From NCBI GenBank assembly GCA_964432925.1, contig CAYSPM010000001.1, positions 32,813 through 70,440 of the forward strand: 37,628 nucleotides of DNA, written 5' to 3'. Every line of letters starts with the position of its first letter. The first letter of the stretch is position 1. The position numbers and the translations under genes were made by a program. Source of the DNA: an uncultured Pirellulales bacterium. Lineage in GTDB: Bacteria > Planctomycetota > Phycisphaerae > Sedimentisphaerales > Anaerobacaceae. A model generated the notes under the pieces. That model ran no database searches and was not told the DNA's origin. It worked only from the letters and a program-made list of their open reading frames with translations. Below are positions 4,161-35,976 of this stretch, one piece after another.

Positions 4161-4220
4161 GGGAGTCAGGGATCTGGGATCAGAGAAGGCTTCACCGAGT
4201 CTGCTGATCCCTGAACCCCG
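4161..4220 (+). repeat. Copy B of the ~60-bp imperfect-palindromic repeat (flgA-flgH spacer)
   Basis: gggagtcagggatctgggatcagagaaggcttcaccgagtctgctgatccctgaaccccg. Aligns position-for-position with the reverse complement of 99-159 and with 37357-37416. Confidence 0.85.
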
Positions 4221-4308
4221 ATTCCTGATAACTACTTTTTAAGGAAAAGATGACGCTGTGGTTTCTGCGATGAGCAGTGGAAAGGGAACAATTAGCGAAG
4301 GGGAAATA

Positions 4309-9219: not shown

Positions 9220-10407
9220 ATGAGCGGTTCGCTTAGCAATATTTACGACACTGTCAGCTATGCCCTATATCTGAACTCCAAGGCCTTGGCTCGTTTGCAG
9301 GAACAAGCCTCTACTGGCTCAAGGATAAATAGAATTTCTGATGACCCGTATGATGCTTGCCGCGTTTTGGGGCTTGAGTCTCATCAGAGATCCCTGGAAA
9401 CTTACATGAAGACGCTATCGGAGTTGGTCGGCAAGCTGGAGATTTCATCGTCAGTCCTTGGGGATATGACCTCTGCACTTGCTAATATTAAAGCCGATTT
9501 AGCTCAAGTTGTTAGTGGAACCTATGGCCAAGAAGGTCGGCTGAGGATCGCGGATGGAATAAATGACACGTTGGAGCAGATGGTTTCGCTGGCTAATACA
9601 GAGCACTCTGATCAATATCTATTTGCAGGATCAGATACGACTTCGGCACCCTACGTCGTGGAGCGCAATAGTGGAAAGATTGTACGTGTGACTTATCAAG
9701 GCAGCAACGAAAAGCCTAACATAGAAGTGGCACCCGGCCTTCAAGCCTCACCGTTCTACGTCGGCGATGAAATCTTTCGTTCAGATAGCCGCAGCGACAC
9801 GGTTTTTCTGGGAGATACCGGCGCCAAGGCCGGCACCGGCACATCCAGTGTTTGCGGTGACGTTTGGCTAACGGTTACTCACGACGGCAGCAACTACCAA
9901 CTGTCCATCGATGATGGAGCCAGCTACGTAACAGTGCCGTCAGGAGGTGACACCAACCAGGCTGTGACGGATTCACGGACCGGACGCGTCCTTTATGTTG
10001 ACACTACCCAGATTAATAACACCGGAACTGAGCTGGTGCGTGTACCGGGGACATACGATGTATTTGCCGCATTAATAAGCATTCGCGACATGTTAAGAAA
10101 CGAAAGGGGCCTTTCAGACACTCAATTGAGCGAGGTCCAGGATAGTTGCCTCACTTCGCTCGAAGAGATAAGAAACCTGCTGGTGCAGGCTGGAATCTCT
10201 GTTGGGTTGAAAATGGGCTTCCTAAGTGATCTAAAAGGCAATCTCGAAAATATTAGCTATAACGCGGAAGAAGAAGCGACACAACTTCAAGAAGCTGATA
10301 TCGCGCAAGTAGCCATAGACCTTTCGCGCCGGCAAATTCTATACGAGATGTCGTTATCTGTAGCTGGCAAACTCATGTCACTGTCGCTGCTGGACTTCAT
10401 AACGTAG
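9220..10407 (+). CDS. flgL: Hook-associated protein 3 FlgL (hook-filament junction)
   Basis: 395 aa. LARLQEQASTGSRINRISDDPYDA is the flagellin-N/FlgL signature, and the C-terminus DIAQVAIDLSRRQILYEMSLSVAGKLMSLSLLDFI fits. Position after flgK. Confidence 0.85.
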   Translation: MSGSLSNIYDTVSYALYLNSKALARLQEQASTGSRINRISDDPYDACRVLGLESHQRSLETYMKTLSELVGKLEISSSVLGDMTSALANIKADLAQVVSGTYGQEGRLRIADGINDTLEQMVSLANTEHSDQYLFAGSDTTSAPYVVERNSGKIVRVTYQGSNEKPNIEVAPGLQASPFYVGDEIFRSDSRSDTVFLGDTGAKAGTGTSSVCGDVWLTVTHDGSNYQLSIDDGASYVTVPSGGDTNQAVTDSRTGRVLYVDTTQINNTGTELVRVPGTYDVFAALISIRDMLRNERGLSDTQLSEVQDSCLTSLEEIRNLLVQAGISVGLKMGFLSDLKGNLENISYNAEEEATQLQEADIAQVAIDLSRRQILYEMSLSVAGKLMSLSLLDFIT

Positions 10408-10526: not shown

Positions 10527-10541
10527 GGCACGTAATTTGCA
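10527..10541 (+). promoter_or_regulatory. Sigma-54 (RpoN) -24/-12 promoter upstream of the glycosyltransferase island
   Basis: cGGCAC-GTAAT-TTGCA is an exact GG-N10-GC spacing match to TGGCAC-N5-TTGCW. It lies ~60 nt upstream of ATG 10602, with an AAGGAG RBS at 10589-10594. Confidence 0.7.
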
Positions 10542-10601
10542 CTAATTTTTTCGGGATCGTAGCAATTGGCAGCCCCCTTTGAGAAATAAGGAGTAGCGCT
10601 T

Positions 10602-12116
10602 ATGATGGCACAGGCAGATTCGAGTCGTTATCAAGAAGCAGTGGGATTAGCTGAAACCAGCAAATATCAGGAAGCACTTGTCCGCATTGAGGAATATCTT
10701 CGAGTTTCGCCTAATGATGTAGAGGCCTTGAATGATGCGGGAGCAATTTTACACTGTTTAGGACGGTCCGACGAGGCCATCGAGCATCTGGTCCGCGCAA
10801 GAAAGCTACAGCCTGATTCTGCCGAGATAGTTTGGAACCTGGCAGAGGCATACCTTGGTGCTGGTAGAGCAGATCAAATCGGCCAGCTTTATAACGACAT
10901 GGAACGAATGGGCATACTGAATGCTGATGTGCTCAACAGGACAGCGAACTTATTTTTGAACCAATCAAACAAAGCCGACGCGCTCGAAATGTTATTGCGT
11001 TCGCTGAAGCTATCACCAGATCAGCAGGTACTTGAGCCTATGCTCGAGGTGATTCGAAGCAAAAGACCCAAGATCGGCTTTTTCCGCGCAGCTAACGCGG
11101 AGAATAGATCACTTACAGATATTTGCGCCTTTGCACAAGAACGCTTCAGTGTACAGCATTTCCAGGGTCAAAGCGTGGACCAGATGTATGAATTTATGAA
11201 AACCAGTGACATCTGCTGGTTTGAAGGCTGTAGCGACATTGCCTCTGAGGCCTCGAAATTACCAAAGATCACCAAAAACATTGTCAAGCTACATGGACCT
11301 GAGCTACAAGATGGATGGCCGAGGCAGGTTCAATGGGAGAACATTGATATTCTCATCACAATTGGTAATTCCCAGTTCGAAGAGATTTTGTTAGAGCAGG
11401 TGCCTGACATTAAGACTCGAACAAGGCTCGTTACGATTCCTAAAGGCGTTGATCTTGAAAAGTTTAAGTTTGTTGGCAGAAAGCGCGGCAAGAATCTCGC
11501 CTGCATTGGTCATTTGAATATGCAGAAAAATCCCATGTTTCTGCTGCAGTGTATGCAGAAGCTGCACTACATCGACCCGGAGTACAGGCTGTTCTTCGCA
11601 GGAGCTTTTCAGAGCCCGATGCTTCAGCGGTATATAATGCACATAGTACAGGCGCTCGAACTGTCAAATATTGTGCTTTTTGATGGCTGGCAAGAGGATG
11701 TAAATTGCTGGCTGCAAGATAAACACTTCGTTGCTTCAGCCGGTATCGGGCAAAGTCAAGAGATGGGATTATTGCAAGGTATGGCTTGTGGCCTGAAGCC
11801 GGTCATCCACAATTTTCCAGGCGCTAGTGAAATGTTTCCGCCTGATTTACTGTTCAATATCTCTGAGCAATTTTGTGAGCGAATCCTTGCGGACAGATAT
11901 GAGCCCGAGAGCTATCGTAGATTCGCCGAAGAAAGGTATCCATTGAGAAATCAGTTAGAAAAAATCAACGGCATCTTCATCCAGCTCGAACGCGAAATAG
12001 ATACTCGGCAGGCTAAAAGTCCATCTAGTATCGAGTTAGAGAACAGACCAGTTGAAAACGCAACATTACCTAACGAGTTCCATTCTTTAGAGTTTAATAA
12101 TAATAGAATCTCGTGA
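10602..12116 (+). CDS. TPR-repeat + GT-B (GT1/GT4-like) glycosyltransferase; FlmG-like architecture
   Basis: 504 aa. The N-terminal ~150 aa are TPR-like (YQEALVRIEEYLRVSPNDVEALNDAGAIL..., AEIVWNLAEAYLGAGR). The C-terminal part carries the GT-B nucleotide-sugar motif region (SQEMGLLQGMACGLKPVIHNFPGASEMF). Confidence 0.7.
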   Translation: MMAQADSSRYQEAVGLAETSKYQEALVRIEEYLRVSPNDVEALNDAGAILHCLGRSDEAIEHLVRARKLQPDSAEIVWNLAEAYLGAGRADQIGQLYNDMERMGILNADVLNRTANLFLNQSNKADALEMLLRSLKLSPDQQVLEPMLEVIRSKRPKIGFFRAANAENRSLTDICAFAQERFSVQHFQGQSVDQMYEFMKTSDICWFEGCSDIASEASKLPKITKNIVKLHGPELQDGWPRQVQWENIDILITIGNSQFEEILLEQVPDIKTRTRLVTIPKGVDLEKFKFVGRKRGKNLACIGHLNMQKNPMFLLQCMQKLHYIDPEYRLFFAGAFQSPMLQRYIMHIVQALELSNIVLFDGWQEDVNCWLQDKHFVASAGIGQSQEMGLLQGMACGLKPVIHNFPGASEMFPPDLLFNISEQFCERILADRYEPESYRRFAEERYPLRNQLEKINGIFIQLEREIDTRQAKSPSSIELENRPVENATLPNEFHSLEFNNNRIS

Positions 12117-13786
12117 CTCTCTGTTTTCAAGTAATGTCAGATACGATTGAAATGATCAAAAGCTACAGAACTGATTCCGGATTGGATAAGCTGCGTGAGC
12201 AAAGCAGAATAAAGGCCGACCCACTTGTTAGTGTACTAATCCCGACCTTTAATCGACCCCAATATCTCTCTATAGCTCTTGCCAGTGTTTTGCGACAAAG
12301 TTACAGAAATCTTGAGATCATCGTCGTCAATGACGGTGGTACTGATGTCAGTGATTTAATCAATTCTTTTGATGACCAAAGGCTGATGTTTATCAATAGA
12401 AAGGAAAATCACGGAAAGGCATTTTCTCTGAATGAGGCTCTGGACAGAGCAAACGGCAAGTACGTTGCCTACCTTGATGATGATGACTTGTATTACCCTA
12501 ATCATATAGAGTTGTTGGTAAACGCTCTGGAAAATGAAACAGACTGCCAGGTTGCATATACCGACTTATATAAGAGTTACTGCAATGTGCTGCCGGATGG
12601 CAGCCGACAGATTTTGAGCAAAGTGGTTGAAATCAGCCGGGATTTCGACCGTTTCTTCATGCTATATTACAATCACGTATTACACGTATGCCTAATGCAC
12701 CGTCGAGACCTGATTGAAAAGACCGGCTATTATAATGAAAAGCTAAACATCCTCATCGACTGGGACATGACGCGTCGTCTCGCCTTTTTCTCGGATTTCC
12801 ATCACGTACCCAAAGTCACTGGTGAGTTTTACAGTCCTTGTGGTGAATGCGACAGAATATCTGTCCAGAGGCGCAAAGATAAAAGTGAATACCTCCGGAA
12901 CGTTCTTGCGATACGAACGACACGACCTGCAAAGCCTTGGCCGAAGGTCAAAGACTTGTCTGTAATTTTCGTTGCTGATAAGCTTGATAAGCAAGCTGGC
13001 AAAACCATTGGCTACATTTGGCGCTACACGTTCTATCCGTACAAGCTTTATTTGCCACTGCCTCAATCTGATCTTACCAGGCTGAAAACAGATATGCCTA
13101 ACGTTGTGCTTGTGCCTGTCTCGGCCTCTTCTTCTATTACCGAGCGAATAGATGCAGCTTTACGAAGTGCCGATGGAGACTGCATTGCTATCGTTCCCAG
13201 CGGTTTTCCAATAAGCGATATGTGGGTGGAAGAATCTGTATATGTTCTGATCAATAGTTCAGCAGGCCACGTTGCTTTTGAACTCAGAGGCACAACAGAT
13301 GTCCTCTGGGCAATAGTCATTAGAAAAGAGGACTTGTACAATGCTCGCAGGAGTTTTCCCAGCTTGTCTATAAGGCAATCCTTACAGGCATCTGGTATTG
13401 TGCAGAGAAAATTAGGTATTGAGGATACGCCTTTTAAGTTTGACGGTTTGCTTCGAGAAGCGATCTCCTCGCAGAACGATGGAAACTGGAGACAAGCAGG
13501 CAGGATGTTCGAATATATCGCGGAGCACCACAAGAATGAGTTGTGGATGAGAAGCTTGGCTGCAAAGGCTGTCTTCGAGGCCGGTGACCATGCCCGCGCC
13601 GCACAGCTCATTCACGAAGTGAACCAGCAGCGTCCCACGGTAGAGACACTTTTATTGCAAGCTAAGTTTTGCAGAGAGAATAAGAGCTTTTATCGTGCTA
13701 TCCAGTTACTCGAAAAGGCACAGCAAATATTGACTAATGAAATAGATTATTCTACAGGTTCCAAAGTCGTCAACTATACCCAGTAG
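12113..13786 (+). CDS. GT2-family (GT-A) glycosyltransferase with C-terminal TPR-like region
   Basis: VSVLIPTFNRPQYLSIALASVLRQSYRNLEIIVVNDGGTD plus the DxD motif YLDDDDLYYPNH. The C-terminal helical repeats are TPR-like. GTG 12113 overlaps the upstream stop; ATG 12134 is the alternative start. Confidence 0.8.
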   Translation: MTLCFQVMSDTIEMIKSYRTDSGLDKLREQSRIKADPLVSVLIPTFNRPQYLSIALASVLRQSYRNLEIIVVNDGGTDVSDLINSFDDQRLMFINRKENHGKAFSLNEALDRANGKYVAYLDDDDLYYPNHIELLVNALENETDCQVAYTDLYKSYCNVLPDGSRQILSKVVEISRDFDRFFMLYYNHVLHVCLMHRRDLIEKTGYYNEKLNILIDWDMTRRLAFFSDFHHVPKVTGEFYSPCGECDRISVQRRKDKSEYLRNVLAIRTTRPAKPWPKVKDLSVIFVADKLDKQAGKTIGYIWRYTFYPYKLYLPLPQSDLTRLKTDMPNVVLVPVSASSSITERIDAALRSADGDCIAIVPSGFPISDMWVEESVYVLINSSAGHVAFELRGTTDVLWAIVIRKEDLYNARRSFPSLSIRQSLQASGIVQRKLGIEDTPFKFDGLLREAISSQNDGNWRQAGRMFEYIAEHHKNELWMRSLAAKAVFEAGDHARAAQLIHEVNQQRPTVETLLLQAKFCRENKSFYRAIQLLEKAQQILTNEIDYSTGSKVVNYTQ

Positions 13787-13821
13787 GTGGGCACTTCAGA
13801 ATGTAAGGAAAGAGTATTGCC

Positions 13822-14469
13822 ATGGATAAAACGCAAACAAACGATGTTGAACAGCACAACCAGACCCAACATTATGAGGTCTTGCAGGAACTCGGTGACT
13901 GCTACACTTCTATTGGCAACTATACCCAAGCGCAACGTTGCTATGAAAAGGCTGCGTCTATAGGACCTGATGAGCCAGGTCCTTACATTGGGCTTGGAGT
14001 CGCTGCTCTACAGAAGGATCAGCTCGATGATGCTGAAATAGCCTTTAGGGTTGCTTGTCGGCTGGCTCCTGATTGTGCCAAGGCATACACCGGCTTGGCA
14101 ATGGTTGCTCAACAAAGACAAGATTACCACAATGCCTTTGATCTTTATATGAAATCCCTTGAGCTTGACGGTGACAATATAACGGCGCTCTTAGGCCTTT
14201 TTCAGACAAGTTGTAAAATGGGATCGTTCGCCAAAGTCACTTACTATCTGGAAGTCTACCTGAGAGTGCACCAAAGTGACATCTCTGTTATGTTTTCTCT
14301 GGCAGCGCTATACATGAGGGATGGTCGACTTGAACAGGCCAAAGGGATGCTCTTAGATTTATTGGCTTTGGATCCGAATAATAAGGATGCTGCTAATTTA
14401 CTTGAGGAAGTGGAACATAATATAGCGCAGACGAACAAGCAGGAAATCAAGCCGAATGAAAAAGGATAA
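13822..14469 (+). CDS. TPR-repeat protein
   Basis: 215 aa made of consecutive 34-residue TPR-like units (LGDCYTSIGNYTQAQRCYEKAASIGPDEP; AEIAFRVACRLAPDCAKAY; AFDLYMKSLELDGDN; AKGMLLDLLALDPNNKDA). Confidence 0.8.
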   Translation: MDKTQTNDVEQHNQTQHYEVLQELGDCYTSIGNYTQAQRCYEKAASIGPDEPGPYIGLGVAALQKDQLDDAEIAFRVACRLAPDCAKAYTGLAMVAQQRQDYHNAFDLYMKSLELDGDNITALLGLFQTSCKMGSFAKVTYYLEVYLRVHQSDISVMFSLAALYMRDGRLEQAKGMLLDLLALDPNNKDAANLLEEVEHNIAQTNKQEIKPNEKG

Positions 14470-14794
14470 CACTGAAATTGTTTCCTCTAATCAGGCAAAT
14501 CTCTTGGACGATTTGCAGGCACTGCTTAAAAAGCAAATAGCATCAGCTCACAACGGTTGCATTAGTGATGTTGAATCGATGGGCAGACAAGCTGATGTTC
14601 TTGTCCGAAAAATTGCTCAGATGGGTTTTTTGAATCAACCTGATTTTGAGGCTCAGCGTAAGCAACTTCAAAAGCTCTACAACGATTTATGTCTTGCCAT
14701 TACTGCTCAAAAAGACCAGACAGAACAATCACTGAACCGTATCCGCAGAGGTAGGAAGACCATAGCGACTTATCGTAAAAATATTGCATTATAG
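14456..14794 (+). CDS. Hypothetical 112-aa helical/coiled-coil protein
   Basis: The ORF overlaps the upstream TPR gene by 14 nt (coupled). It is charged and helical, and I recognise no family motif in it. Confidence 0.45.
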   Translation: MKKDNTEIVSSNQANLLDDLQALLKKQIASAHNGCISDVESMGRQADVLVRKIAQMGFLNQPDFEAQRKQLQKLYNDLCLAITAQKDQTEQSLNRIRRGRKTIATYRKNIAL

Positions 14795-14824
14795 GCAATA
14801 GGATTTTGATAAGAGTAGGTTTCT

Positions 14825-17800
14825 ATGACAAACTATGACTTAAGCAAGCGCTCTACCGTTAGCGGCGACACCACTTCATCAGCGCCAACGTTCCTTAGCC
14901 ACAAGAGCCCCATACCTCAGACTGGAGAGATTGTTGTGGACGGTCTTAGATTCGCAAATGTTAGGAGAACCAAGCATAAGAACAACTCGGTGGGGTTTAA
15001 TGACAAGTACATTATAAAGATTGAACATTACAAGCACCCGCTGAAACTTCGGTCGCTTTTGGAGGAGATTGAGATAATAAGGTATCTGAACTGGAAAGAG
15101 TGTGTTTCGTGCCCCATACTAGTTTCCGAAGGGAGGCTGAGAACCGGAGAGCGGTATTTCATACAGGAGAGAATTGACAGCCAGCGGGGATTTAATACAG
15201 CCGATATGGTGCTTTCCATACTTGAGCAGAAAAGTCTCGGGGTTTGCCAGGGTGACTTAAAAATAAAGAACTTTATATTCGATGCTGATTCGGTCTGCCA
15301 CATAATTGACTACGACCAGGCAATATATGATAAGCGATTTGTGCAAATGGGCAATACCGAGTATTTCGAATGGATTGCTCAGTACATTGTAAACAGATGG
15401 AGAAAATACGGCGTTACTGATTTTTACAACTCGCATGGATTGAACAGAGACGAGATTTTTAGTCTGTTCAAAAAGGGTGCATTTAATTTGGCTACAGTCA
15501 CGATATTCAAAGATCAAATCACCACAGATTCTGACATTGGCATCTATCACAACTTGAACACCGATAAGATTTATATAGAAGGTGCCCGCGATTTGAATCC
15601 CAGACTTGGCACTTTGGACACTGTTGAATTCAAGAAGGGAGAAATGGTTCTGGATGTTGGGTGTAACATGGGGCTGCTTGGGCATTACCTGCACGATAGA
15701 GGATGCGTAGTAACAGGCATTGATATGGACAGAAAGATTATAATTGGTGCCAAGATGGTTGCCAATATTCTTAACAAGAACATCCAATTTAAATGGCTGG
15801 ATATTGACGAAGCGAGAATAGAACAAGAGTATGACACTATCTGTCTTTTCTCTGTCATTCATCACGTAAAGAACTTTAAGCGGGTAACTGAGAATATAGC
15901 GCAAAGGTGCAACAGGATAATACTGGAATGTGGGTTGAAAGAACATGGTAGTAAGCCTACTAAGGGTGGGTGGACAGCTACAAGCGGGTGGGACTTTAAT
16001 TCTATTGGAGAGCTGGTCCACTATCTTGAGACAGCGTTTAGAGGATTTAGATTCCATGGCTGTCACGGCAGTGTGGACAGGAATAGACAGATAATAACTT
16101 TAGCAAAGAAACCCACAGCGACAACCATGCAAGTTCAGAGAGAACCTCCACGTAGCATTCAGGAAGGTGAATTTGCTGAACAGCAATTAAGCAACGAATC
16201 AAAATATTTAGTCTCAACTATTGTTTCGACGTACAACTCGGGACGCTTTATTCGTGGATGTCTGGAAGATTTAGAAAACCAAACCATCGCTGACAGACTT
16301 GAAATAATCATCGTTAATAGCGGATCAGAAGAAAATGAGGAGACGATCGTTCATGAATTTCAGCAGAAGTATGACAATATAAAATATATCAGAACCGATG
16401 AGCGAGAGACAATATACCGGGCGTGGAACCGAGCTATTAAAATCGCATCAGGTAAATATATTACCAATGCTAATACCGATGACCGTCACAGTCCGGAAAT
16501 GTTTGAAAAACTGGCTACCGCGCTGGATTTGAATGATGATATTGCAGTTGTCTATTCCCAGTTCTATATTACCAGGGTAGAGAATCAAACCTGGCGAAAT
16601 AAAACAGTTGAAAAAATAGCACAATGGGTGCAGCCATATTCGAGAGAACAATTACTAAAAATGTACTTCCTTGGACCACAGCCTATGTGGCGAAAGTCCC
16701 TTCACGACGAATATGGTTATTTCGATGAGACGTTCAAGATATGTGGCGATTATGAATTTTTTCTTCGCGTCTCGCAGACCCATGATTTTTTGTTAATCCC
16801 TGAACCGTTAGGTCTTTATCTGCTTTCACCTAATAGTCTGGGGCGTACTGCTGGGACTAGAGAGCAGGAGGACCAGAAGATATGGGAACTTTATAGGAAT
16901 AATACAGATAGAATAATCCGCGGACCTTTTGTGCCAATTGAAAGCTGCGAAGTTTCCCTAAGTGAGTCAGTTGGTAAGAAGCTCTGCTATAGTGCGAATG
17001 GGATTGCCGCAGAGCATACAGCAACAGTGGGCTCTAACAGTTCTGCTTTGGATTACTTTCTCAAAGCCAAAGACGATTTTAACAAGGGTAATTTTATATC
17101 TGCCACAAAATATATAAATCAATATAAAGCACTGATGGACTATTCTAAGCTACAAAGGTCATTAAATACGAATACAGTAAGAGAAGATAACAACATAGAT
17201 ATATCAGTAATAATAGTAACAAATAATAGAGCAGAGGAACTTCAAGATTGCCTTAAGTCTCTGTTAGAACAAGAAGCTGATTGCAATTTTGAGGTCATTG
17301 TCGTTGATAATGGGTGCGTTAATATCGAAAGTTTCATGCAATGTGTGGATCAATATATCAAGTGCCCCATTAATCTTAACCCATCTGAAGGAAGGAACAT
17401 AGGCGTACGTTTTGCAAGGGGCAATATCATCGTGTTCTTAGATGACGATGCGGTTGTTAGGTCTGATTACGTATCATCAATAAAGTGTGCATTTAACAAA
17501 TACGATATTTTTGGTCTGAGAGGCAGGACTTATCCTAAGAGCAGTCCCGTGGCTAATAATCATGTAAACATCTGTGATCTTGGAGATAAGCCATTTCCTT
17601 CATACTGTAATCAAGAGGGGAACTCCGCTTGGCTCCGTGATATATATCTTTCGGTGGATGGAATGGATCCATTGCTCTTTGGACACGAGGGAAGCGATCT
17701 TACTTACAGGATCATTCAAAAATATAAAAAAACGAATAAGGTTATCTACTGGCCCGCTGCTGTAATATATCACGATTATGGTGTGTCTGAAAAACTAAGA

Positions 17801-20269
17801 AAGAAAAGGATATTGTATCAGCTAAGTGCAAACTATCTTAAGTATAAACACGGCACCGACATATTCGTTAACTGGATGGAGATTAAAAAATATCCTATAG
17901 ACTTAAAGAAAAATTACAAGCTGCCAGAGAAAGTCTGCTCAGGCAGAGTTTCTAATCCATCTTCTGTAATATCTACAGAGCGCTTGCATCCAAGAGTTTC
18001 GATAGTGATATCTTGCTACAATTGTGCAAAATTTCTGCCGGAATGCCTCGAGAGCATCATAAATCAAACTATGCAAGAGTGGGAGCTGTTATTAATCGAC
18101 GACGGCAGCACAGACGGCACAAGAAGTATTATCGAAAAATATGCTCAGATGGATGAAAGAATCAGGCCTTTCTACTCACAGGAAAATAAAGGACCTTATT
18201 TTAGAAGGAACTTTGGAATTGAACATGCCAACAGCGATTTCATTGTTGTACAAGACGCCGATGACATTATGTGTCCGAGCAAACTCCAAATGCTTTATAA
18301 TGAAATAACCAAGGATGACCAGATCGGAATTGTGGGTTCGTTTTATTACAAATTTCTTGAGGAATTTGAGGGTTTCGAATACAGCGAAAAGTGTGAACTA
18401 GCACTTTCTCATGAAGAAATTATGCGAACTGAGCGCTCAAGATGGGACTTCTGTTGGCATGGTTCAGCTATTATCCGTAAAAGCTTGTTTAACGCGATTG
18501 GATTATACGATGAAAATCCGTTTGGCTCAGATTCAGTCTGGCTGGCTAAGACTGCTGAGTATGCGTATTACGATAGCAATGTGAAATTCAAGAACATTCC
18601 TGAGTTTTTAACCTTACGGAGGGTACATGCCGACTCACAAACTGGAATACTTCCGACCTTTGACCCTCGCAGCAGAAGAGTCAAATACGTTTCCTATTGG
18701 CAAGATAAGATTTATAAGATAAGGGAAAGAATCCAAAATAATTCAGGCGTGGATATTGCGGCCGAGCTTAGAAACTGCCAATGTTCGGATTTCACCACCA
18801 AATATGGCCACCTCTTCGATCAATGGGAGAGCGAGCCGCTCGATAAAAAAACTCTGCTTGGATTAGTTAATAGAGCTGTGGTTTTATTTCAAAGCGGTGC
18901 GTATGTAACATGTATTAGTGTGCTTAACGGCCTGGAAAGAGTTGACCGTGAGCTTGCAAATAAACTTAAAAACTTTGATTTATTAAAAGCTAAAGCTTAC
19001 TTTGCCGTTGGCAAAAAACAGCGGTGCCTTAGATACCTTGAAAAAGAAATCCAGAACCACGACAACCCGGCTGCCAGGGAATTTCTGGCTAATCAGTTTC
19101 AAAACGAACATGATACTTTTGTGCCCAGCCAAAGCATAGAAGATCATCTGCAGGTAAGTACTGAACCGGCTGGTCAAAGAGGAGAGCACACCGCACAGAG
19201 CGAACTTGTTACTCCTGACGATAGCACCACTGTGGAGGCTGGAAGGCTTAAAGACAATCTAAATGACTCTCTTCATACGAAGACAGAACCGCTTGTTTCG
19301 ATAGTAATCCCAGCCTACAATGCAAGCCGGTATATCCAAAAGGCTGTCGAAAGCGTGTTGGCTCAAACCTACAGGAATTTCGAGATCATTATTGTTGACG
19401 ATGGTTCCACAGACGCTACCAAAGACAAGGTGCTTAGTTACAACGATTCCAGAATCAACTACCTTTATAAGGACCACTCAGGCCTTGCAAGCGCGTGCAA
19501 TACAGCCATAAGAAAAATTAAGGGATCGTTCTGGATCAGGCTCAATGCCGAGGACATGATCACGCCGGACTTTATTTCCAGGCATCTGCGTGAGTTCGAG
19601 CGGTACCCTGAAGCCGACTTAGTTTACTGTGACGATTGTCTGATTGATGAAGATGGTAACTCGATCCGGATAATTGACAGGCCTGAATACACTAATCGTA
19701 CAGGTTTGATACGGGACCTTTTTCATCACGGTTTCCCAACCGTTCCGTTCGGAACGTGCATTAGAATCGATGTCTTCGATAAAATCGGCATGTTTGACGA
19801 GAGTCTGATTATTGCTGAGAACTACGATATGATGCGAAGATTTGCAAAACATGGTTTAACATCGCATCATTTAAAAGACGCATTATATTTACGCCGAATG
19901 ACATCAGATATTATTTTGAGAGACAATAGCGCCGAAAAGGCCAATTGTTATTTTGACGTGATAAAGCGATTTACCGATATGTTTAGCTGCGAAGAACTTT
20001 TCCCGGACGTTAGTTGGGATGCAATTGCCGCTGAGAAAAGAAAATTGCATGCAAGATGCTTGGCCGCCATTGTTTTTGTTGAACTCGGGCGTGCTTATAC
20101 ACAGTCTAATTCACCTAACTACGCTGGTGTTGCCTTTGATCGGGCCTGTTTTGAGATGCGTGATGCGCTCGAAATGGACCCTGAAAATACACAGATTCAC
20201 CAGTTGCTGCAGCAATGCGAGTTCGCTCGCACCGAATCCAAGAAGTTGCTGTGTGTGTCCGCTCGTTAA
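14825..20269 (+). CDS. 1814-aa multidomain enzyme: protein-kinase-like domain + class I SAM methyltransferase + four GT2 glycosyltransferase domains + TPR-like linkers
   Basis: Uninterrupted 5.4-kb ORF in AT-rich DNA.
- Kinase-like motifs: YIIKIE (Lys), LLEEIE (Glu), GDLKIKNFIF (D-L-K-x-x-N catalytic loop, nt 15251-15271), HIIDYD (nt ~15303-15320).
- Methyltransferase motif I: VLDVGCNMGLLG (nt ~15647).
- GT2 starts: VSTIVSTYNSGRF (~16205), ISVIIVTNNRAEEL (~17195, DxD FLDDDA), VSIVISCYNCAKFL (~17993, DxD QDADD), VSIVIPAYNASRYI (~19292). Confidence 0.8.
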   Translation: MTNYDLSKRSTVSGDTTSSAPTFLSHKSPIPQTGEIVVDGLRFANVRRTKHKNNSVGFNDKYIIKIEHYKHPLKLRSLLEEIEIIRYLNWKECVSCPILVSEGRLRTGERYFIQERIDSQRGFNTADMVLSILEQKSLGVCQGDLKIKNFIFDADSVCHIIDYDQAIYDKRFVQMGNTEYFEWIAQYIVNRWRKYGVTDFYNSHGLNRDEIFSLFKKGAFNLATVTIFKDQITTDSDIGIYHNLNTDKIYIEGARDLNPRLGTLDTVEFKKGEMVLDVGCNMGLLGHYLHDRGCVVTGIDMDRKIIIGAKMVANILNKNIQFKWLDIDEARIEQEYDTICLFSVIHHVKNFKRVTENIAQRCNRIILECGLKEHGSKPTKGGWTATSGWDFNSIGELVHYLETAFRGFRFHGCHGSVDRNRQIITLAKKPTATTMQVQREPPRSIQEGEFAEQQLSNESKYLVSTIVSTYNSGRFIRGCLEDLENQTIADRLEIIIVNSGSEENEETIVHEFQQKYDNIKYIRTDERETIYRAWNRAIKIASGKYITNANTDDRHSPEMFEKLATALDLNDDIAVVYSQFYITRVENQTWRNKTVEKIAQWVQPYSREQLLKMYFLGPQPMWRKSLHDEYGYFDETFKICGDYEFFLRVSQTHDFLLIPEPLGLYLLSPNSLGRTAGTREQEDQKIWELYRNNTDRIIRGPFVPIESCEVSLSESVGKKLCYSANGIAAEHTATVGSNSSALDYFLKAKDDFNKGNFISATKYINQYKALMDYSKLQRSLNTNTVREDNNIDISVIIVTNNRAEELQDCLKSLLEQEADCNFEVIVVDNGCVNIESFMQCVDQYIKCPINLNPSEGRNIGVRFARGNIIVFLDDDAVVRSDYVSSIKCAFNKYDIFGLRGRTYPKSSPVANNHVNICDLGDKPFPSYCNQEGNSAWLRDIYLSVDGMDPLLFGHEGSDLTYRIIQKYKKTNKVIYWPAAVIYHDYGVSEKLRKKRILYQLSANYLKYKHGTDIFVNWMEIKKYPIDLKKNYKLPEKVCSGRVSNPSSVISTERLHPRVSIVISCYNCAKFLPECLESIINQTMQEWELLLIDDGSTDGTRSIIEKYAQMDERIRPFYSQENKGPYFRRNFGIEHANSDFIVVQDADDIMCPSKLQMLYNEITKDDQIGIVGSFYYKFLEEFEGFEYSEKCELALSHEEIMRTERSRWDFCWHGSAIIRKSLFNAIGLYDENPFGSDSVWLAKTAEYAYYDSNVKFKNIPEFLTLRRVHADSQTGILPTFDPRSRRVKYVSYWQDKIYKIRERIQNNSGVDIAAELRNCQCSDFTTKYGHLFDQWESEPLDKKTLLGLVNRAVVLFQSGAYVTCISVLNGLERVDRELANKLKNFDLLKAKAYFAVGKKQRCLRYLEKEIQNHDNPAAREFLANQFQNEHDTFVPSQSIEDHLQVSTEPAGQRGEHTAQSELVTPDDSTTVEAGRLKDNLNDSLHTKTEPLVSIVIPAYNASRYIQKAVESVLAQTYRNFEIIIVDDGSTDATKDKVLSYNDSRINYLYKDHSGLASACNTAIRKIKGSFWIRLNAEDMITPDFISRHLREFERYPEADLVYCDDCLIDEDGNSIRIIDRPEYTNRTGLIRDLFHHGFPTVPFGTCIRIDVFDKIGMFDESLIIAENYDMMRRFAKHGLTSHHLKDALYLRRMTSDIILRDNSAEKANCYFDVIKRFTDMFSCEELFPDVSWDAIAAEKRKLHARCLAAIVFVELGRAYTQSNSPNYAGVAFDRACFEMRDALEMDPENTQIHQLLQQCEFARTESKKLLCVSAR

Positions 20270-20438: not shown

Positions 20439-22808
20439 ATGTCTACTTTACAATTTCCAGGTCTTTTTACCGGCATTGACACGGCTAAGATCATTGAGCA
20501 ACTAATGGCTGTTGAGCGTCGTACGCTCAATATGTACCAGGGCCGCAAGAGCCTCTGGGAAGAGAGAAAAGATGCCCTCAGCGATCTCGAGAGCAAGCTC
20601 GATGCCTTAAGAAGCACAATCAGCGCCCTTTCCGATGCCAACGAGCTACGTGCCTTCACAACCGCTACCAGTGATGAAGATATATTAACAGCCGAAGCGT
20701 CCTATAACGCCTTTGAAGGCAACCATACCGTCCAGATCAATCGATTGGCTACTGCCGAGCGATGGGTGCATACAGATGGACTCGAATACGCCGAAGACTA
20801 TGTCGGTGAAGGAACCTTCATTTATTCTTACAATCACAAAGAGACAGTAATCACCACTACCTCTACCACTACACTCGAAGAGCTGGTGGGGCTGATTAAC
20901 AATGAAGCGAACAATCCCGGCGTTACAGCCAGTCTGCTGCACTTTAACGATATGTATCATCTGGTCCTGAACGGCAATGACGCCGGCACCGATTTTGAAA
21001 TCTCGGTAAACGCATCCAACACGGAGGTCTGGCAGGCGGATTCTGAACTTACCGTCGCCAGCGACAACGCTACTTTAAGCACTAAGATTATTGATTTGGA
21101 CCAATTTGACGATAGTCTGGGTTCACTCGTTGGAGACGAACGTATTCGTATTACCGGCAACAAGCACGATGGCACTGCCGTCGATGTGTATATGGATGTT
21201 ACCGGCAATACGAAGCTTTTTCATATTATTGCCGAGATTAACGACGCTTTCGGAGATACTGCTACGGCAGTTCTGGAAAACGGCAAGATAGTTTTAACAG
21301 ATCATGAGTCCGGCACAAGTCAGATGACACTTACACTGGCCTATGATCCGGGCACCGGACAAACGGATATGACTTTACCGACTATTAGTCAATCAACACG
21401 GGGTGGCTCTGTCACAGCGGACCTGACTGGTTTTGCAGAAGCAAACTTTAGCGAAACCCAATCAGCTCAGGATAGCGAAATAAGGGTTGACGGCTTCCCA
21501 ATCCCACAAGCGGGAATTGCCGAGGTGCAAACGCTGGAAGCCACCACAAATCCATCTGGTGGTACCTTTACCTTAACTTATGACGGACAAACGACTGATC
21601 CGATCAATCACAATGCTAAAACTTCCGATATTGAAAACGCACTTGAAGCATTGTCAAATGTAAATCCCGGCGATATAACGGTGAGTGGCAAGAAGTTGAG
21701 CGAGAATGGTACTACGATATTTACATTCCTCGATACAGTCGGTGATGTTCCTATGATTTCGATTAATTCCGGCAACCTGACTCCCAGTGATCCTTTAAAT
21801 TACGTATTTGAGGAACAGACAAAGGGCGACAACTATGGCTGGATCAAAAGAAGCTCTAATACTGTAGACGATGTCATTCACGGTGTAACGCTGCATTTGC
21901 ACGACACCACCGACTCCAACGGCGAGGAAATAACCCTGACCAGAGATATAGAGTCGGTAAAGGAAAAACTGAATTCCATGGTTAAAGCCTATAATAGTGC
22001 TATAACCTATATCAAGGAAAAGACCGGCTACAACGATGTCCTTAAGACAGCAGGTATCCTTATGGGCGATTATGTTGTCTCCATGATCCATAATTTGCTG
22101 CGCACACCACTAATAGCCCAAACTAGTGGTTTCATCGAGGATGTAGATCCTTTGTTGATGCCCGCTCAAATCGGTCTTGAGCTCGACGAAGACGGCATGT
22201 TGAGCTTGGATACCAATGCCTTCGATGAAGCCATTGCCGATAACTATATGGGCGTTTTGGCCGTAATCGGCGCTGATAAAACCGGTAGCTCCAATAGCAA
22301 CACTATTGAATTCTACGGTGCCAGCAGTAAGTATACAACCGCCGGCGGCTACGACGTTGAAGTAACCATTAGTGGCGGTGCAATCACAAGCGCCAAAATT
22401 AAACTCTCAAGCGAGTCCACATATAGAGACGCAACTTACAGCGGCAACATCGTTACTGGTGATAGCTCCTTTGATGACAACGGTGATCCTGTATACCCGG
22501 AGAACAGTCTTCAGCTGAGTGTGGACCTGAGCCAGAATGGGACATTCACGGCTACAGTCAGAGTCAAGCAGGGCTTTACCGGTGCAATGGAAGACGTGCT
22601 TGACAGAATGCTCAAGGTAACCACCGGCTCAATACAGATCGACCAGGAACACGTCGGCGATACCATAAAGGAATTGCAGGAGCGAATTGAAATTGAAGAG
22701 GAGCGCCTCGAAGATAAGGAGGCCAGACTAATCATCCGCTTTGCCCGTCTTGAGAGTACGTTGACCTTACTTCAAAACCAGTTGGCTGCCTTAGGCTTAA
22801 GCGCATAA
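20439..22808 (+). CDS. fliD: Flagellar filament cap protein FliD (HAP2), unusually long
   Basis: 789 aa. The N-terminus MSTLQFPGLFTGIDTAKIIEQLMAVERRTLNMYQ and the central SEIRVDGFPI ... SSNTVDDVIHGVTLHL ... VKEKLNSMVKAYNSAITYIKEKT are FliD hallmarks. C-terminal coiled coil. AAGGTGG RBS. Confidence 0.92.
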   Translation: MSTLQFPGLFTGIDTAKIIEQLMAVERRTLNMYQGRKSLWEERKDALSDLESKLDALRSTISALSDANELRAFTTATSDEDILTAEASYNAFEGNHTVQINRLATAERWVHTDGLEYAEDYVGEGTFIYSYNHKETVITTTSTTTLEELVGLINNEANNPGVTASLLHFNDMYHLVLNGNDAGTDFEISVNASNTEVWQADSELTVASDNATLSTKIIDLDQFDDSLGSLVGDERIRITGNKHDGTAVDVYMDVTGNTKLFHIIAEINDAFGDTATAVLENGKIVLTDHESGTSQMTLTLAYDPGTGQTDMTLPTISQSTRGGSVTADLTGFAEANFSETQSAQDSEIRVDGFPIPQAGIAEVQTLEATTNPSGGTFTLTYDGQTTDPINHNAKTSDIENALEALSNVNPGDITVSGKKLSENGTTIFTFLDTVGDVPMISINSGNLTPSDPLNYVFEEQTKGDNYGWIKRSSNTVDDVIHGVTLHLHDTTDSNGEEITLTRDIESVKEKLNSMVKAYNSAITYIKEKTGYNDVLKTAGILMGDYVVSMIHNLLRTPLIAQTSGFIEDVDPLLMPAQIGLELDEDGMLSLDTNAFDEAIADNYMGVLAVIGADKTGSSNSNTIEFYGASSKYTTAGGYDVEVTISGGAITSAKIKLSSESTYRDATYSGNIVTGDSSFDDNGDPVYPENSLQLSVDLSQNGTFTATVRVKQGFTGAMEDVLDRMLKVTTGSIQIDQEHVGDTIKELQERIEIEEERLEDKEARLIIRFARLESTLTLLQNQLAALGLSA

Positions 22809-26507: not shown

Positions 26508-26523
26508 TGCAAATGATGTGCCT
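26508..26523 (-). promoter_or_regulatory. Sigma-54 -24/-12 promoter for fliOPQR-flhB
   Basis: The reverse complement reads aGGCAC-ATCAT-TTGCA with correct spacing. It is ~80 nt upstream of the fliO start and lies inside the only sizeable intergenic gap (197 bp) of the minus-strand block. Confidence 0.6.
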
Positions 26524-26624: not shown

Positions 26625-27398
26625 TCAAATGTTGTTCTTGAGAACGGCAATCAAGATTTGAGATTGTTTTGGAACAGGGCTATCTTGACCGGCCCATTGC
26701 CCTCCCGGTCCGGCCCCCCACCACAGAACGGACCATTCATGTCTGTTGCCGAGCACATCGTACTGACCCTGACGAGCTGAGTCGAATGACAATATCTGCT
26801 GCAGGAGGTCAGCTACCACGCGTGCTCGCTCAGCGGACAGTAGCCACTGTTTTTTTTCTGTCGCTTCATCACCAGCCAAGCCGAGTACGTACAGAGTACC
26901 AGGCTCGGAGTCATGGCTTTGTTGCAGGTCCAGGCAGAAATCAGCCAAAAATCGCTTTGCCGATTCATTCAAAGTTGCTTGGCCAGAGGCAAACTGAATG
27001 TCGGTTACCGCAAAGTTTGTGCTCGCCGCCACGATTTGCGATGGCATTGTCGCCATTGATTGCCTTATCCGCTCGAAAGCTCGACGAAGTTTCTCTCTTT
27101 GTTCATCTATACCTCTGGTCTCTGATATATTGTTAGGATCGCTTGTTGAGTATTTGATTTTCATTTCACCCATATCTGTTCGCATTCTTTTGCCAAGTAA
27201 CGGCCCAAGTCCGCAGTATTTTACAGACTGCCAGAATGAGTCGCGACCTTTGTTAAAAAGCTCGGGGTCCTGAACCTCAGCAAGGCTCAGCAGCATCACA
27301 AAGAATGTCAGCAGCAATGTCACCATATCAGAGAATGTGACTATATATGCTGGTACCTTAGATGACCCCTCGTCTTGTGCGCGGGAGCTGGTTTTCAA
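26625..27398 (-). CDS. motB: MotB-family stator protein, distal paralog (OmpA-like C-terminus)
   Basis: 257 aa. The TM/plug region PAYIVTFSDMVTLLLTFFVMLLSL carries the conserved Asp. The C-terminal WLLSAERARVVADLL matches the OmpA-like LSxxRAxxV. Apparent TTG start overlaps the upstream stop (TTGA). Confidence 0.8.
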   Translation of the reverse strand: MKTSSRAQDEGSSKVPAYIVTFSDMVTLLLTFFVMLLSLAEVQDPELFNKGRDSFWQSVKYCGLGPLLGKRMRTDMGEMKIKYSTSDPNNISETRGIDEQREKLRRAFERIRQSMATMPSQIVAASTNFAVTDIQFASGQATLNESAKRFLADFCLDLQQSHDSEPGTLYVLGLAGDEATEKKQWLLSAERARVVADLLQQILSFDSARQGQYDVLGNRHEWSVLWWGAGPGGQWAGQDSPVPKQSQILIAVLKNNI

Positions 27399-28096
27399 CG
27401 GTAAATGCTCCGTTCTAATATCACGATTTCGAGTCTGCGACTGTCTTTTCGATTCGTGGCATACCCTATGTTGTCCAATCCGTTTTTTTCTGGGATTGTA
27501 CTTCTTGTAGAGATGCCGAACCGCTTTTTGTCGAGCCCATGTTTATTCGTTAAGTATTCTGTTATGGCCCATGTACGTTTCAGCCCAACATCTTGGTTGC
27601 CCGTGCTGTCATGCTCGTTCTCACTTATTACGATCCTATTAGGGATCGCCTTGAGCAACTCAGCAATATCCGACAAAGTCCTCCGCCCTTCAGCCGAGAT
27701 TAGGATTCCCTTACCCCAGAAAATTCTACTTGACGGGGTCACGAAAACCTTTTTATTCTGAAATTCTAAAAACTCCGTCTCCTCTTTCGGATTAGCTTCG
27801 ATATTCCCCTCCAAAGTTGGTTTCTCACTGCCCTTGTCAATTTCTTTGTTATACTTTATCTGTTTAACTTCGGTAAAAGCCTCCCTGTCCTTAGTGAGCG
27901 ACATGCCCACTGAGGGCAACGCCTCAGCCAACGATGTCTCCATCTTACGGAAAACCTTGTCGTCAAATGAGGAGAAGGTCAAAAGCAGAACGAAGAACGT
28001 CAGAAGCAACGTCATACAATCGCTGAAAGTCACCATCCATTCAGGTGCGCCGGCAGAATCCTCATCCGCTTGTACCTTTTTACTTGTGCCAGCCAT
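27395..28096 (-). CDS. motB: MotB-family stator protein, motA-proximal paralog
   Basis: 233 aa. APEWMVTFSDCMTLLLTFFVLLLTF carries the conserved Asp. The C-terminus has ITEYLTNKHGLDKKRF and NRKDSRRLEIVI (an NRRVEI-like OmpA end). The ATG overlaps the motA stop (TAATG). Confidence 0.8.
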   Translation of the reverse strand: MAGTSKKVQADEDSAGAPEWMVTFSDCMTLLLTFFVLLLTFSSFDDKVFRKMETSLAEALPSVGMSLTKDREAFTEVKQIKYNKEIDKGSEKPTLEGNIEANPKEETEFLEFQNKKVFVTPSSRIFWGKGILISAEGRRTLSDIAELLKAIPNRIVISENEHDSTGNQDVGLKRTWAITEYLTNKHGLDKKRFGISTRSTIPEKNGLDNIGYATNRKDSRRLEIVILERSIYR

Positions 28097-28870: not shown

Positions 28871-29590
28871 TTACTCTCTCTCGACCACTTGTTTCAATCT
28901 CTGGCATAGAACCGCTGCAAGCTTGGGCTCAGTTGAAACTAATTCTGCTAATAGTTTGGCCTTGGTTCTCTCAGTCATATAGTGCAGTATTTTCACTGCG
29001 TCATCCATACTGTTTTGCATACCTCCACCAACCTTTGATACTTGAGACGTGCACATATTGGTCAATATCTGGCTTGCACTTGAAGCGTCCATCTTGTCAT
29101 AGGTAGCTGCGATGGACAGCAGGTTGGTCTTTTCAGCCTTGCCTATTTCAACCCTGCTCTTCTGTAGCCTGTCGCGCTCGTTCTTAAGACTGACGACAGC
29201 CGATGAAAGTTCTACTCGCAGATTGTCCAAATCTTCTATATCTTTTCGCAGTGTCTCCTGAGTGATTTGAAGTCTTTGCTCTCGCTTCTCGAGGCTTTGT
29301 AGCTTCTGGTCATACTCTTGCATCTTCTCGCGAACGTCAAAGATAAGCTCCTTTAAGTGTCGTTCCGCCAGGGTTTTCTCTGTCGTCTGCTCCTCCATCC
29401 CAGTAGTGCCGAGCGAGTCAGCTTGTTGATAAGGCACTTTCAGCTCTGCTCGGCTGCTTGCCGTTGTTGACTGTGCTGACTGACTCGGAGGTGCTGGGGC
29501 AGTGCTCTTGGTCAGCCGTGCCAGGACAAACGCACCCGAAAAACTCAACAAACCTGCCCCTGCCATTATTATTATCAGCTTTTTATTCAC
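28871..29590 (-). CDS. YlxF/FlbB-like flagellar protein (signal-anchor, coiled coil, MgtE_N-like C-terminal segment)
   Basis: 239 aa. An N-terminal TM segment (LIIIMAGAGLLSFSGAFVLA), a long coiled coil, and C-terminal IAATYDKMDASSASQILTNM...AVKILHYMTERTKAKLLAEL resembling MgtE_N-type helices. It occupies the position after fliJ, as ylxF does in fla/che-type operons. Confidence 0.5.
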   Translation of the reverse strand: MNKKLIIIMAGAGLLSFSGAFVLARLTKSTAPAPPSQSAQSTTASSRAELKVPYQQADSLGTTGMEEQTTEKTLAERHLKELIFDVREKMQEYDQKLQSLEKREQRLQITQETLRKDIEDLDNLRVELSSAVVSLKNERDRLQKSRVEIGKAEKTNLLSIAATYDKMDASSASQILTNMCTSQVSKVGGGMQNSMDDAVKILHYMTERTKAKLLAELVSTEPKLAAVLCQRLKQVVERE

Positions 29591-35961: not shown

Positions 35962-35976
35962 GCAACACTCGTGCCA
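35962..35976 (-). promoter_or_regulatory. Sigma-54 -24/-12 promoter for the flgB-...-motB operon
   Basis: The reverse complement reads TGGCAC-GAGTG-TTGCt, a full consensus match. The -12 element is ~47 nt upstream of the flgB ATG (35915). Confidence 0.75.

Follow-up and report, generated by a model that had tools for sequence, protein, structure and literature searches.

A conserved locus of TPR and glycosyltransferase genes between flgL and fliD in Sedimentisphaerales: a putative system for the glycosylation of flagellar proteins

What is known of flagellar glycosylation comes mostly from Proteobacteria, Campylobacterota, and Firmicutes. In Pseudomonas, the flgL-to-fliD cluster includes the glycosylation genes fgt1 and fgt2 upstream of fliC (PMC3927599), and the flagellin glycosylation islands of enterobacteria, which encode glycosyltransferases (GTs) of families GT2 and GT41 as well as methyltransferases, are hypervariable and low in GC content (PMC4875605). 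Flagellin is recruited to the transferase by a tetratricopeptide repeat (TPR) domain or by a small adaptor (PMC7591256; bioRxiv 10.1101/2023.12.03.569772). FlmG of Caulobacter and Brevundimonas is a flagellin O-glycosyltransferase with a TPR part, which binds the flagellins, and a C-terminal GT-B domain (PMC7591256); according to its description, this class does not extend beyond Caulobacterales (bioRxiv 10.1101/2023.12.03.569772). Maf-1 has a fused TPR, and Maf-2 is bridged to flagellin by GlfM, an 89-aa helical bundle with FliS/FliT-like features (bioRxiv 10.1101/2023.12.03.569772). A search of the literature did not find a paper on flagellar glycosylation in Planctomycetota. Here, a locus of five open reading frames (ORF1–ORF5) between flgL and fliD of an uncultured planctomycete of the order Sedimentisphaerales is described. 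It is part of a stretch of 37,628 nucleotides (contig CAYSPM010000001.1, positions 32,813–70,440; hereafter the window), and, as judged from the gene content and its context, it probably encodes a system that glycosylates flagellin, or other flagellar proteins destined for export, in the cytoplasm.

Like the islands of Pseudomonas (P. aeruginosa PAK; fgt1/fgt2 and the viosamine island of P. syringae), the locus places GT genes within flgL–fliD and is variable in content; enzymes acting in the cytoplasm on flagellin before its export would be a further common trait. The view of an initial annotation of the window, that the placement differs from that of known islands, could therefore not be upheld. 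Unlike in Pseudomonas, where fliC follows the island, fliC–fliS is found ∼20 kb away, past the flgB operon; a core of four genes is kept across the order, with only the fliD-proximal part (here termed the cargo slot) being variable; and protein families are not detectably shared beyond GT2. With FlmG, ORF1 has in common the TPR plus GT-B domain plan (to which the likeness amounts), its solubility, and its being part of the flagellar program, and the flagellins are short in both cases (269 aa here). FlmG (596 aa), however, transfers pseudaminic or legionaminic acid, a pathway for which is lacking in the window, and a family for FlmG was not among the Pfam and NCBIfam matches. That the composition, too, is unlike that of known islands had been overstated, since TPR-bearing flagellin GTs are known: FlmG (PMC7591256), Maf-1 (bioRxiv 10.1101/2023.12.03.569772), and GT41 enzymes (PMC4875605). 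The locus resembles Maf-1 and the Maf-2/GlfM pair in its logic, in so far as ORF3 and ORF4 could serve TPR-less cargo enzymes likewise, but the window contains no Maf domain, no Maf-2 partner, and no nonulosonic acid pathway. The locus differs from the described systems in that its core is shared order-wide and has a conserved sigma-54 promoter to itself, in that a free-standing TPR protein is the best conserved member, in that a single giant multi-GT protein often occupies the cargo slot, in the separate location of the flagellin gene, and, in the window, in the fusion of a kinase-like, a methyltransferase, and four GT2 modules.

A fixed core and a variable slot between flgL and fliD

ORF1–ORF5 (10602–20269; Table 1) are co-oriented and tightly packed, overlapping by 4 and 14 nt or being separated by gaps of 35 and 30 nt. 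This arrangement and the borders (flgL ending at 10407 and fliD starting at 20439) were confirmed as initially annotated, and so was the count of six GT domains (Pfam). Of the four TPR-bearing proteins that had been proposed, ORF1, ORF2 (weakly), and ORF3 were borne out; the fourth, ORF5, gave only a weak match (ANAPC3, E 0.0023). Hydrophobic segments are absent from all five products, which are thus predicted to be soluble. As had also been claimed, domains for nucleotide-sugar biosynthesis were not found when the ORFs of the window were scanned with Pfam and NCBIfam, and genes for NeuB/PseI, PseB/C, or a CMP-sugar synthetase were not found in the window either. Within ORF1–ORF5, there was no Pfam match to MAF_flag10/DUF115 (PF01973) or to an initiating phosphoglycosyl transferase, a flippase, a permease, or a polymerase.

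Scanning one genome per species with an alignment of ORF1 identified 156 genomes, the best 80 of which were surveyed by tblastn; all of these 80 are metagenome-assembled genomes (MAGs) of Sedimentisphaerales, Phycisphaerae, or Planctomycetota. The gene immediately 5′ of ORF1 was flgL in 73 of 74 related loci. Downstream of ORF1, ORF3 was present in 54 of 54, ORF2 in 51 of 54, and ORF4 in 49 of 54 loci, and in 11 loci fliD was reached inside the retrieved DNA. The arrangement flgL–locus–fliD, the conservation of which had been put forward as a check, is therefore shared by related genomes. The core evolves at the pace of flagellar structural genes, median identities to the window proteins being 58% (ORF1), 63% (ORF2), 69% (ORF3), and 46% (ORF4), compared with 62% for FlgK and 61% for FlgL. 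The spacing between the end of ORF4 and fliD, on the other hand, ranged from 88 bp to more than 7.4 kb. Four minimal loci (L031, L038, L065, and L069) have the order flgL–ORF1–ORF3–ORF4–fliD, that is, they are without ORF2; in these and in L079, which are all free of cargo, ORF4 ends 88–125 bp before fliD. Thus, the locus consists of two parts, a vertically conserved core (ORF1–ORF4) and a hypervariable cargo slot, occupied by ORF5 in the window. Two further observations concern the core: ORF2-type GT2+TPR genes are duplicated in tandem in some relatives (L021 and L022), and in five relatives one or two additional genes are located between flgL and ORF1, for example, a methyltransferase plus GT9 protein in L007.

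In most related loci, coding sequence accounts for over 90% of the interval from ORF4 to fliD and is co-oriented. The giant proteins of this interval (1,100 to more than 2,400 aa) contain GT2 domains in 19 of 24 cases and GT1/GT4 domains in 8 of 24, in addition to methyltransferase, FkbM, GT9, and TPR domains. Methyltransferases make up 21 of the 106 smaller cargo proteins; epimerases/dehydratases, RmlD, Polysacc_synt_2, CTP_transf_3, radical-SAM/B12 enzymes, and Capsule_synth are also represented. A Maf-type MptE-like domain is part of the cargo of L009 and L010, in one relative together with a CMP-sugar synthetase, and the slot of another relative holds a dTDP-sugar set. Enzymes of these kinds are the usual content of flagellin glycosylation islands. 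When 167 cargo ORFs of relatives were inspected for hydrophobic segments, 145 had none and only one had two or more. An initiating transferase, a flippase, an ABC transporter, or a polymerase was found neither in the window nor in the cargo of ∼50 relatives. The GC content of the ORF5 region is 0.38–0.42, compared with 0.46–0.49 in its surroundings, and ORF5 itself is a mosaic: aa 16–658 are 57% identical to cargo of L089, aa 723–1080 are ∼47% identical to cargo of L041, L074, and L075, and aa 1037–1804 are 52% identical to cargo of L051 and L061. Variable content combined with low GC, as in an island, was thus observed for the cargo part only, and the ORF1–ORF4 core is not variable. Acquisition of the whole locus as one block was rejected because low GC and mosaicism are limited to ORF5.

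The locus is preceded by an exact sigma-54-type element, GGCAC-N5-TTGCA, which had been noted initially and was read at the predicted site (Table 1). Only three exact copies of GGCAC-N5-TTGC are present in the window, all of them intergenic, correctly oriented, and in front of flagellar operons; that the structural genes share this promoter type, as had been stated, is evident from the copies before the fliO and flgB operons. When one mismatch was allowed, 20 matches were counted in the window versus 8.9 expected, and 20 were not reached in any shuffle. Among relatives, the motif stands out as a phylogenetic footprint: it is exact in the flgL–ORF1 spacer of 64 of 78, and at least nine more have it with one mismatch; the consensus across these spacers is CGGCACGGAATTTGCA, against a background of 0.058 exact matches per kb. 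The element of the window (cGGCAC-N5-TTGCA) fits the sigma-54 form TGGCAC-N5-TTGCW in both spacing and strand. Genes for RpoN and for an enhancer-binding activator are not part of the window. That sigma-54 controls motility genes in Planctomycetota was predicted previously (PMC12316311). Based on the motif, ORF1–ORF5 share the predicted sigma-54 class with the hook-basal-body and export operons.

The promoter-like element upstream of fliD is of a different type, sigma-28 (TTAAG-N17-CGATAA, its sole match in the window), and a similar motif precedes fliD in ∼15 of 17 related loci, the minimal ones included. With a spacing of N16, the same motif precedes fliC (L014). The sigma-28 consensus is TAAA-N15-GCCGATAA, to which the elements of fliD and fliC conform. 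Since fliD has its own sigma-28-type motif, ORF1–ORF5 and fliD would belong to separate transcription classes. A scan for terminators and sigma-70 promoters was at chance level, and no terminator was seen in the ORF5–fliD or the flgL–ORF1 spacer. The locus supplies a well-supported pair of sigma-54 and sigma-28 promoters with which the flagellar hierarchy in Planctomycetota can be read.

Proteins of the core and of the cargo slot

ORF1 consists of TPRs (∼aa 1–155) and a C-terminal GT-B domain, which scored with Glyco_trans_1_4 and Glycos_transf_1 (Pfam) and is thus GT4-like. More than 1,000 homologues were found, the best 120 of which (57–88% identity) are from Planctomycetota/Sedimentisphaerales; the closest named relatives are Sedimentisphaerales/Phycisphaerae MAGs. 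When plasmids were searched by tblastn, just distant generic GTs in unrelated contexts were retrieved. In the AlphaFold2 model of ORF1 (mean predicted local distance difference test [pLDDT] 77), a TPR solenoid is followed by two Rossmann-like halves. Comparing this model with solved structures (Foldseek) gave Arabidopsis SPINDLY and bacterial and human OGT as top matches (E 1e-14 to 1e-10), but TM-scores of only ∼0.4 and a high root-mean-square deviation indicate a match at the level of architecture and no close kinship. In contrast to these enzymes, which belong to GT41, ORF1 had no match to Glyco_transf_41 at E ≤ 0.01 (Pfam). A profile search against solved structures produced matches through the TPR portion only. 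Both glutamates of the EX7E motif are kept in the family, at position 384 in 76 and at position 392 in 75 of 81 orthologues; a few lineages other than that of the window are without one of them. ORF1 is a candidate protein-directed glycosyltransferase.

ORF2 comprises a GT2 domain (aa 40–230; Glycos_transf_2, E 1.7e-28) in which the DxD motif is present, and a weak C-terminal TPR region (aa 450–540; TPR_19 and ANAPC3). The solved structures nearest to it in a profile search are generic GT2 enzymes. ORF3, the best-conserved gene of the locus, is made up of TPRs. Its matches to the TPR-type chaperones of type III secretion, LcrH/SycD, SctY, and SicA, were below threshold, and its similarity to the TPR arm of ORF1 (E 0.003 over 66 aa) shows that the two are not close paralogues; the sequence makes ORF3 a candidate substrate-binding adaptor. 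ORF4 of the window matched no family of Pfam or NCBIfam, and the profile search against solved structures gave chance-level helical matches only, for example, ribosomal protein S20. Among 39 orthologues of ORF4, however, 22 matched FlgN and 17 matched FliT (Pfam; best E 1.2e-6). ORF4 is thus probably a chaperone or adaptor of the FliT/FlgN type and not an enzyme, FliT being the simplest reading given these matches and the position before fliD. By analogy, a GlfM-like glycosyltransferase adaptor is a candidate alternative.

ORF5 starts with a kinase-like domain (aa 30–245) and an S-adenosylmethionine-dependent methyltransferase domain (aa 264–430; Pfam match aa 264–367), followed by four GT2 domains at ∼aa 462–690, 784–1011, 1056–1290, and 1489–1721 (E 2.4e-117). 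The linker in front of the last of these (∼aa 1335–1430) is TPR-like but weakly so (besides ANAPC3, TPR_14 with E 0.077 over aa 1290–1485). The AlphaFold2 model has a pLDDT of 82. Several lines of evidence point to a kinase fold of the first domain: an APH family match in six of eight relatives (best E 1.4e-6), the invariance of D144-x-K146-xx-N149 and D162-Y-D164, and the fact that its weak matches in structure databases are all kinases, aligned at the catalytic loop. The kinase–methyltransferase module is rare, with just nine homologues in 5.8 billion proteins, all of which are free-standing. Two of these homologues (L099, 10001–11260, and a contig of P0124) sit in dense, co-oriented clusters of glycan genes; their contigs also bear PhoH, PD-(D/E)XK, MT-A70, and UvsW-like genes, which suggests that they are large phages with glycosylation genes of their own.

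A combination of such modules is known from O-antigen synthesis. In WbdD, methylation of the terminal phosphate, after it has been added, caps the chain. WbdD phosphorylates the chain end and regulates how long the chains of the O9a O-antigen are (PMC3482155). Like WbdD and WbdA of E. coli O9a and Klebsiella, ORF5 joins kinase-like, methyltransferase, and several GT modules, here in one soluble protein. The differences are that the order is reversed in ORF5 (kinase-like domain first), that a membrane anchor or a coiled-coil ruler is lacking, and that neither an ABC transporter nor lipid-carrier enzymes are encoded nearby. In addition, WbdD ranked only 49th among the fold matches of the ORF5 N-terminus (25% identity), with the methyltransferase part alone being clearly matched. 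A WbdD-like capping role of this part of ORF5 is therefore an analogy and not a result.

Proposed function and its alternatives

That the locus is a dedicated system for modifying an exported flagellar substrate, as initially suggested, is consistent with the synteny, the promoter, the solubility of the products, the fold of ORF1, and the cargo of relatives; what did not hold is that it is one unit (an "island"), and ORF4 is probably not one of the enzymes. Protein glycosylation is favored over the export of a polysaccharide because hydrophobic segments and lipid-carrier machinery are lacking and because four of the five products contain protein-binding modules (TPRs or a helical bundle). The following scheme for catalytic roles, order of action, substrate, and timing is proposed on the basis of gene content, conservation, promoter motifs, and fold resemblance. 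ORF1 would select the protein substrate via its TPR arm and add the first sugar to serine or threonine, as do OGT, SPINDLY, and FlmG, and ORF2 would attach a further sugar. ORF3 would be a free-standing adaptor that binds the substrate, and ORF4 either the export chaperone of FliD or a GlfM-like adaptor. The slot between ORF4 and fliD would accommodate plug-in cargo of species-specific content. In the case of ORF5, the four GT2 modules would lengthen the glycan, which the kinase-like and methyltransferase modules would then modify or cap. The most likely substrate would be the 269-aa flagellin, with FliD, FlgK, and FlgL as alternatives. Membership of the enzymes in the predicted sigma-54 class would mean that they are already present when the late substrates of the sigma-28 class come to be synthesized and exported.

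Several observations weigh against this proposal. Both the glycan and the protein that would carry it are deduced from sequence, the TPR and GT2/GT4 domains are generic, and no match of ORF1–ORF5 reached the cutoff of a curated flagellin glycosyltransferase family (Pfam, NCBIfam). The EX7E motif, present in the family, is missing from the window copy of ORF1, in which both glutamates are replaced (Q384/Q392; 11751–11777) and G387 is exchanged for E; a relative with 88% identity (P0002) shares Q384/Q392 and has D at position 387. ORF1 of this lineage may thus be inactive or altered. Because sugar-nucleotide biosynthesis genes are absent from the window, the system would depend on housekeeping sugars as donors. 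Finally, the flagellin gene adjoins the locus in none of the 80 relatives, fliC or fliS not being found within 10 kb.

Alternatively, the core could consist of assembly or export factors instead of active enzymes; FliD or the junction proteins would then have ORF3 and ORF4 as their chaperones, ORF1 would be a ligand-binding scaffold, and sugar transfer would be incidental or lost. The orthologues of ORF4 do match FliT and FlgN and directly precede fliD in minimal loci, which hold just ORF1, ORF3, and ORF4; the sub-threshold matches of ORF3 are to secretion chaperones; and ORF1 is without both EX7E glutamates in the window and without one of them in a few other lineages. This explanation is nevertheless unlikely, given that the motif is retained in 75–76 of the 81 orthologues of ORF1, that ORF2 and ORF5 retain motifs of the DxD type and strong GT2 scores, and that the slot was repeatedly refilled with sugar-modifying enzymes, which is hard to explain without a glycan. 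Similarly improbable is the synthesis of a lipid-carried surface polysaccharide (an O-antigen, a capsule, or a filament-associated glycan) that is merely coregulated with flagella and for which giants of the ORF5 type would be WbdA/WbdD-like. The kinase, methyltransferase, and multi-GT plan of ORF5, which also counts against a modified flagellar protein, is one typically seen where O-antigens are assembled in an ABC-transporter-dependent manner (PMC3482155, PMC11231755), and WbdD is at least among the fold matches of its N-terminus. Moreover, the same organism has Wza- and Wzi-type genes a few kb past fliC–fliS, the GT matches include enzymes for exopolysaccharide, teichuronic acid, and colanic acid, and the free-standing kinase–methyltransferase homologues occur in nonflagellar glycan clusters. 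The machinery that such a pathway depends on (a phosphoglycosyl transferase, a flippase, an ABC transporter, or a polymerase) was, however, encountered neither in the window nor in the cargo of relatives, where a single ORF of 167 has more than one hydrophobic segment, and TPR or helical modules for the binding of proteins make up part or all of four of the five products. The strict synteny from flgL to fliD and the flagellar-class promoter in nearly all relatives point in the same direction, so that the genes were rightly assigned at the outset to the flagellar program and not to a stray polysaccharide locus.

An OGT-like regulatory or general O-glycosylation, in step with motility, of nonflagellar cytoplasmic proteins or of flagellar regulators appears highly improbable. 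Despite the fact that OGT and SPINDLY, the best fold matches of ORF1, modify many intracellular proteins, and that a flagellin gene is next to the locus in no relative, the elaborate and species-specific cargo suggests a glycan that is exposed at the surface and under pressure to diversify, and not a single regulatory sugar, and the locus keeps its place between two filament-proximal structural genes. An anti-phage function was considered too and dropped, PADLOC having returned nothing of note.

The preferred reading, a cytoplasmic glycosylation system for exported flagellar proteins, can be extended to the order, although this more specific form is tentative and rather doubtful as a whole. 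It would describe a vertically inherited glyco-module of Sedimentisphaerales, in which a fixed core for recognition and initiation (TPR+GT-B, GT2+TPR, a free TPR adaptor, and a FliT-like protein) is combined with a recombining slot of giant GT assembly lines that build a species-specific oligosaccharide on a flagellar protein in the cytoplasm, with kinase–methyltransferase capping in the present case. If so, a new type of adaptor or chaperone for flagellar substrates would be represented by the free-standing TPR protein. The locus does not alter how flagellin glycosylation is understood in general. It represents a natural experiment, in that a core conserved like structural genes stands beside a slot refilled in each species, and it allows one to ask how substrate recognition (by TPRs and small helical adaptors) is kept apart from glycan chemistry. 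The cargo proteins also amount to a catalogue of soluble multi-module GTs that possibly build defined glycans on protein, which would be of interest for glyco-engineering.

The flagellin gene and other features of the cluster

The whole window is a single large flagellar cluster, the DNA of which was also found in several sediment metagenome contigs of the Joint Genome Institute. On the plus strand, the end of flgE is followed by a 435-aa ORF, flgF, flgG, flgA, flgH, flgI, a small FlgJ-like ORF, flgN, flgK, flgL, ORF1–ORF5, and fliD. Genes on the minus strand are flhB, fliR, fliQ, fliP, fliO, two motB, motA, a coiled-coil ORF, fliJ, fliI, fliH, fliG, fliF, fliE, flgC, and flgB.

Table 1. Positions of the locus, its borders, and promoter-like elements in the window
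Feature	Position	Strand	Evidence or remark
flgL, hook-filament junction protein, left border	9220–10407	+	NCBIfam TIGR02550 FlgL, E 5e-50, above cutoff; Pfam Flagellin_N
Sigma-54-type element GGCAC-N5-TTGCA	10527–10541	+	Sequence GGCACGTAATTTGCA; 61 nt before ORF1 start codon
ORF1, 504 aa, TPR + GT-B	10602–12116	+	Pfam
ORF2, 557 aa, GT2 + weak TPR	12113–13786	+	Pfam
ORF3, 215 aa, TPR only	13822–14469	+	Pfam TPR_2, E 2.6e-21
ORF4, 112 aa, helical, FlgN/FliT kind	14456–14794	+	Pfam matches of orthologues
ORF5, 1,814 aa, variable cargo: kinase-like, methyltransferase, four GT2	14825–20269	+	Pfam, NCBIfam
Sigma-28-type promoter-like element TTAAG-N17-CGATAA	20289–20316	+	Upstream of fliD; sole match in window
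fliD, filament cap, 789 aa, right border	20439–22808	+	Pfam FliD_N, FliD_C
Second exact GGCAC-N5-TTGC	26509–26522	−	Upstream of fliO-fliP-fliQ-fliR-flhB operon
Third exact GGCAC-N5-TTGC	35962–35975	−	Upstream of operon starting flgB-flgC-fliE-fliF

Apart from FlgL, the window had been said to contain no flagellin ORF, and this was corroborated when it was searched by tblastn with the organism's own flagellin, which gave no match; the other large ORFs are otherwise assigned. The absence of flagellin from the genome was rejected since the gene sits just outside the window. In contigs of the same organism, the genes for flagellin (269 aa) and fliS are found ∼2.5 kb past the right end (L014, 4435–5813, corresponding to ∼40103–41481 in window numbering), that is, beyond the flgB operon and ∼20 kb from ORF1–ORF5. 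The order past flgB is a FliK-like gene (starting at ∼36376 and cut by the end of the window), two small ORFs, flagellin, fliS, and Wzi-/Wza-type capsule export genes. The protein has conserved N- and C-terminal domains and a short middle part, which, as the initial annotation had proposed to check, is rich in serine and threonine (27 of 120 residues).

A few features of the cluster are outside the scope of the locus. FliD is unusually long, with additional central domains (weak MBG/Ig-like match), and is of similar length in relatives. The 435-aa ORF that separates flgF from the end of flgE (194–1501) matched no Pfam or NCBIfam family; at the same site, L009 and L010 have a 424-aa gene, likewise without a family, and the ORF may be an unrecognized flagellar component of the lineage. 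Downstream of motA, MotB paralogues of 257 and 233 aa are encoded one after the other (26625–28096), and the 239-aa coiled-coil ORF between fliJ and motA (28871–29590) weakly matched the spirochaete collar protein FlbB. The FliK-like (Flg_hook) gene contains three tandem copies of 189 nt (36432–36998; 81–83% identity), which give rise to 63-aa repeats. In addition, a repeat of ∼68 nt is present in three copies (98–165, 4161–4229, and 37350–37424), one of them inverted; two are intergenic, and the third lies inside the FliK-like ORF. It looks like an element of the repetitive extragenic palindrome or miniature inverted-repeat transposable element (REP/MITE) type.

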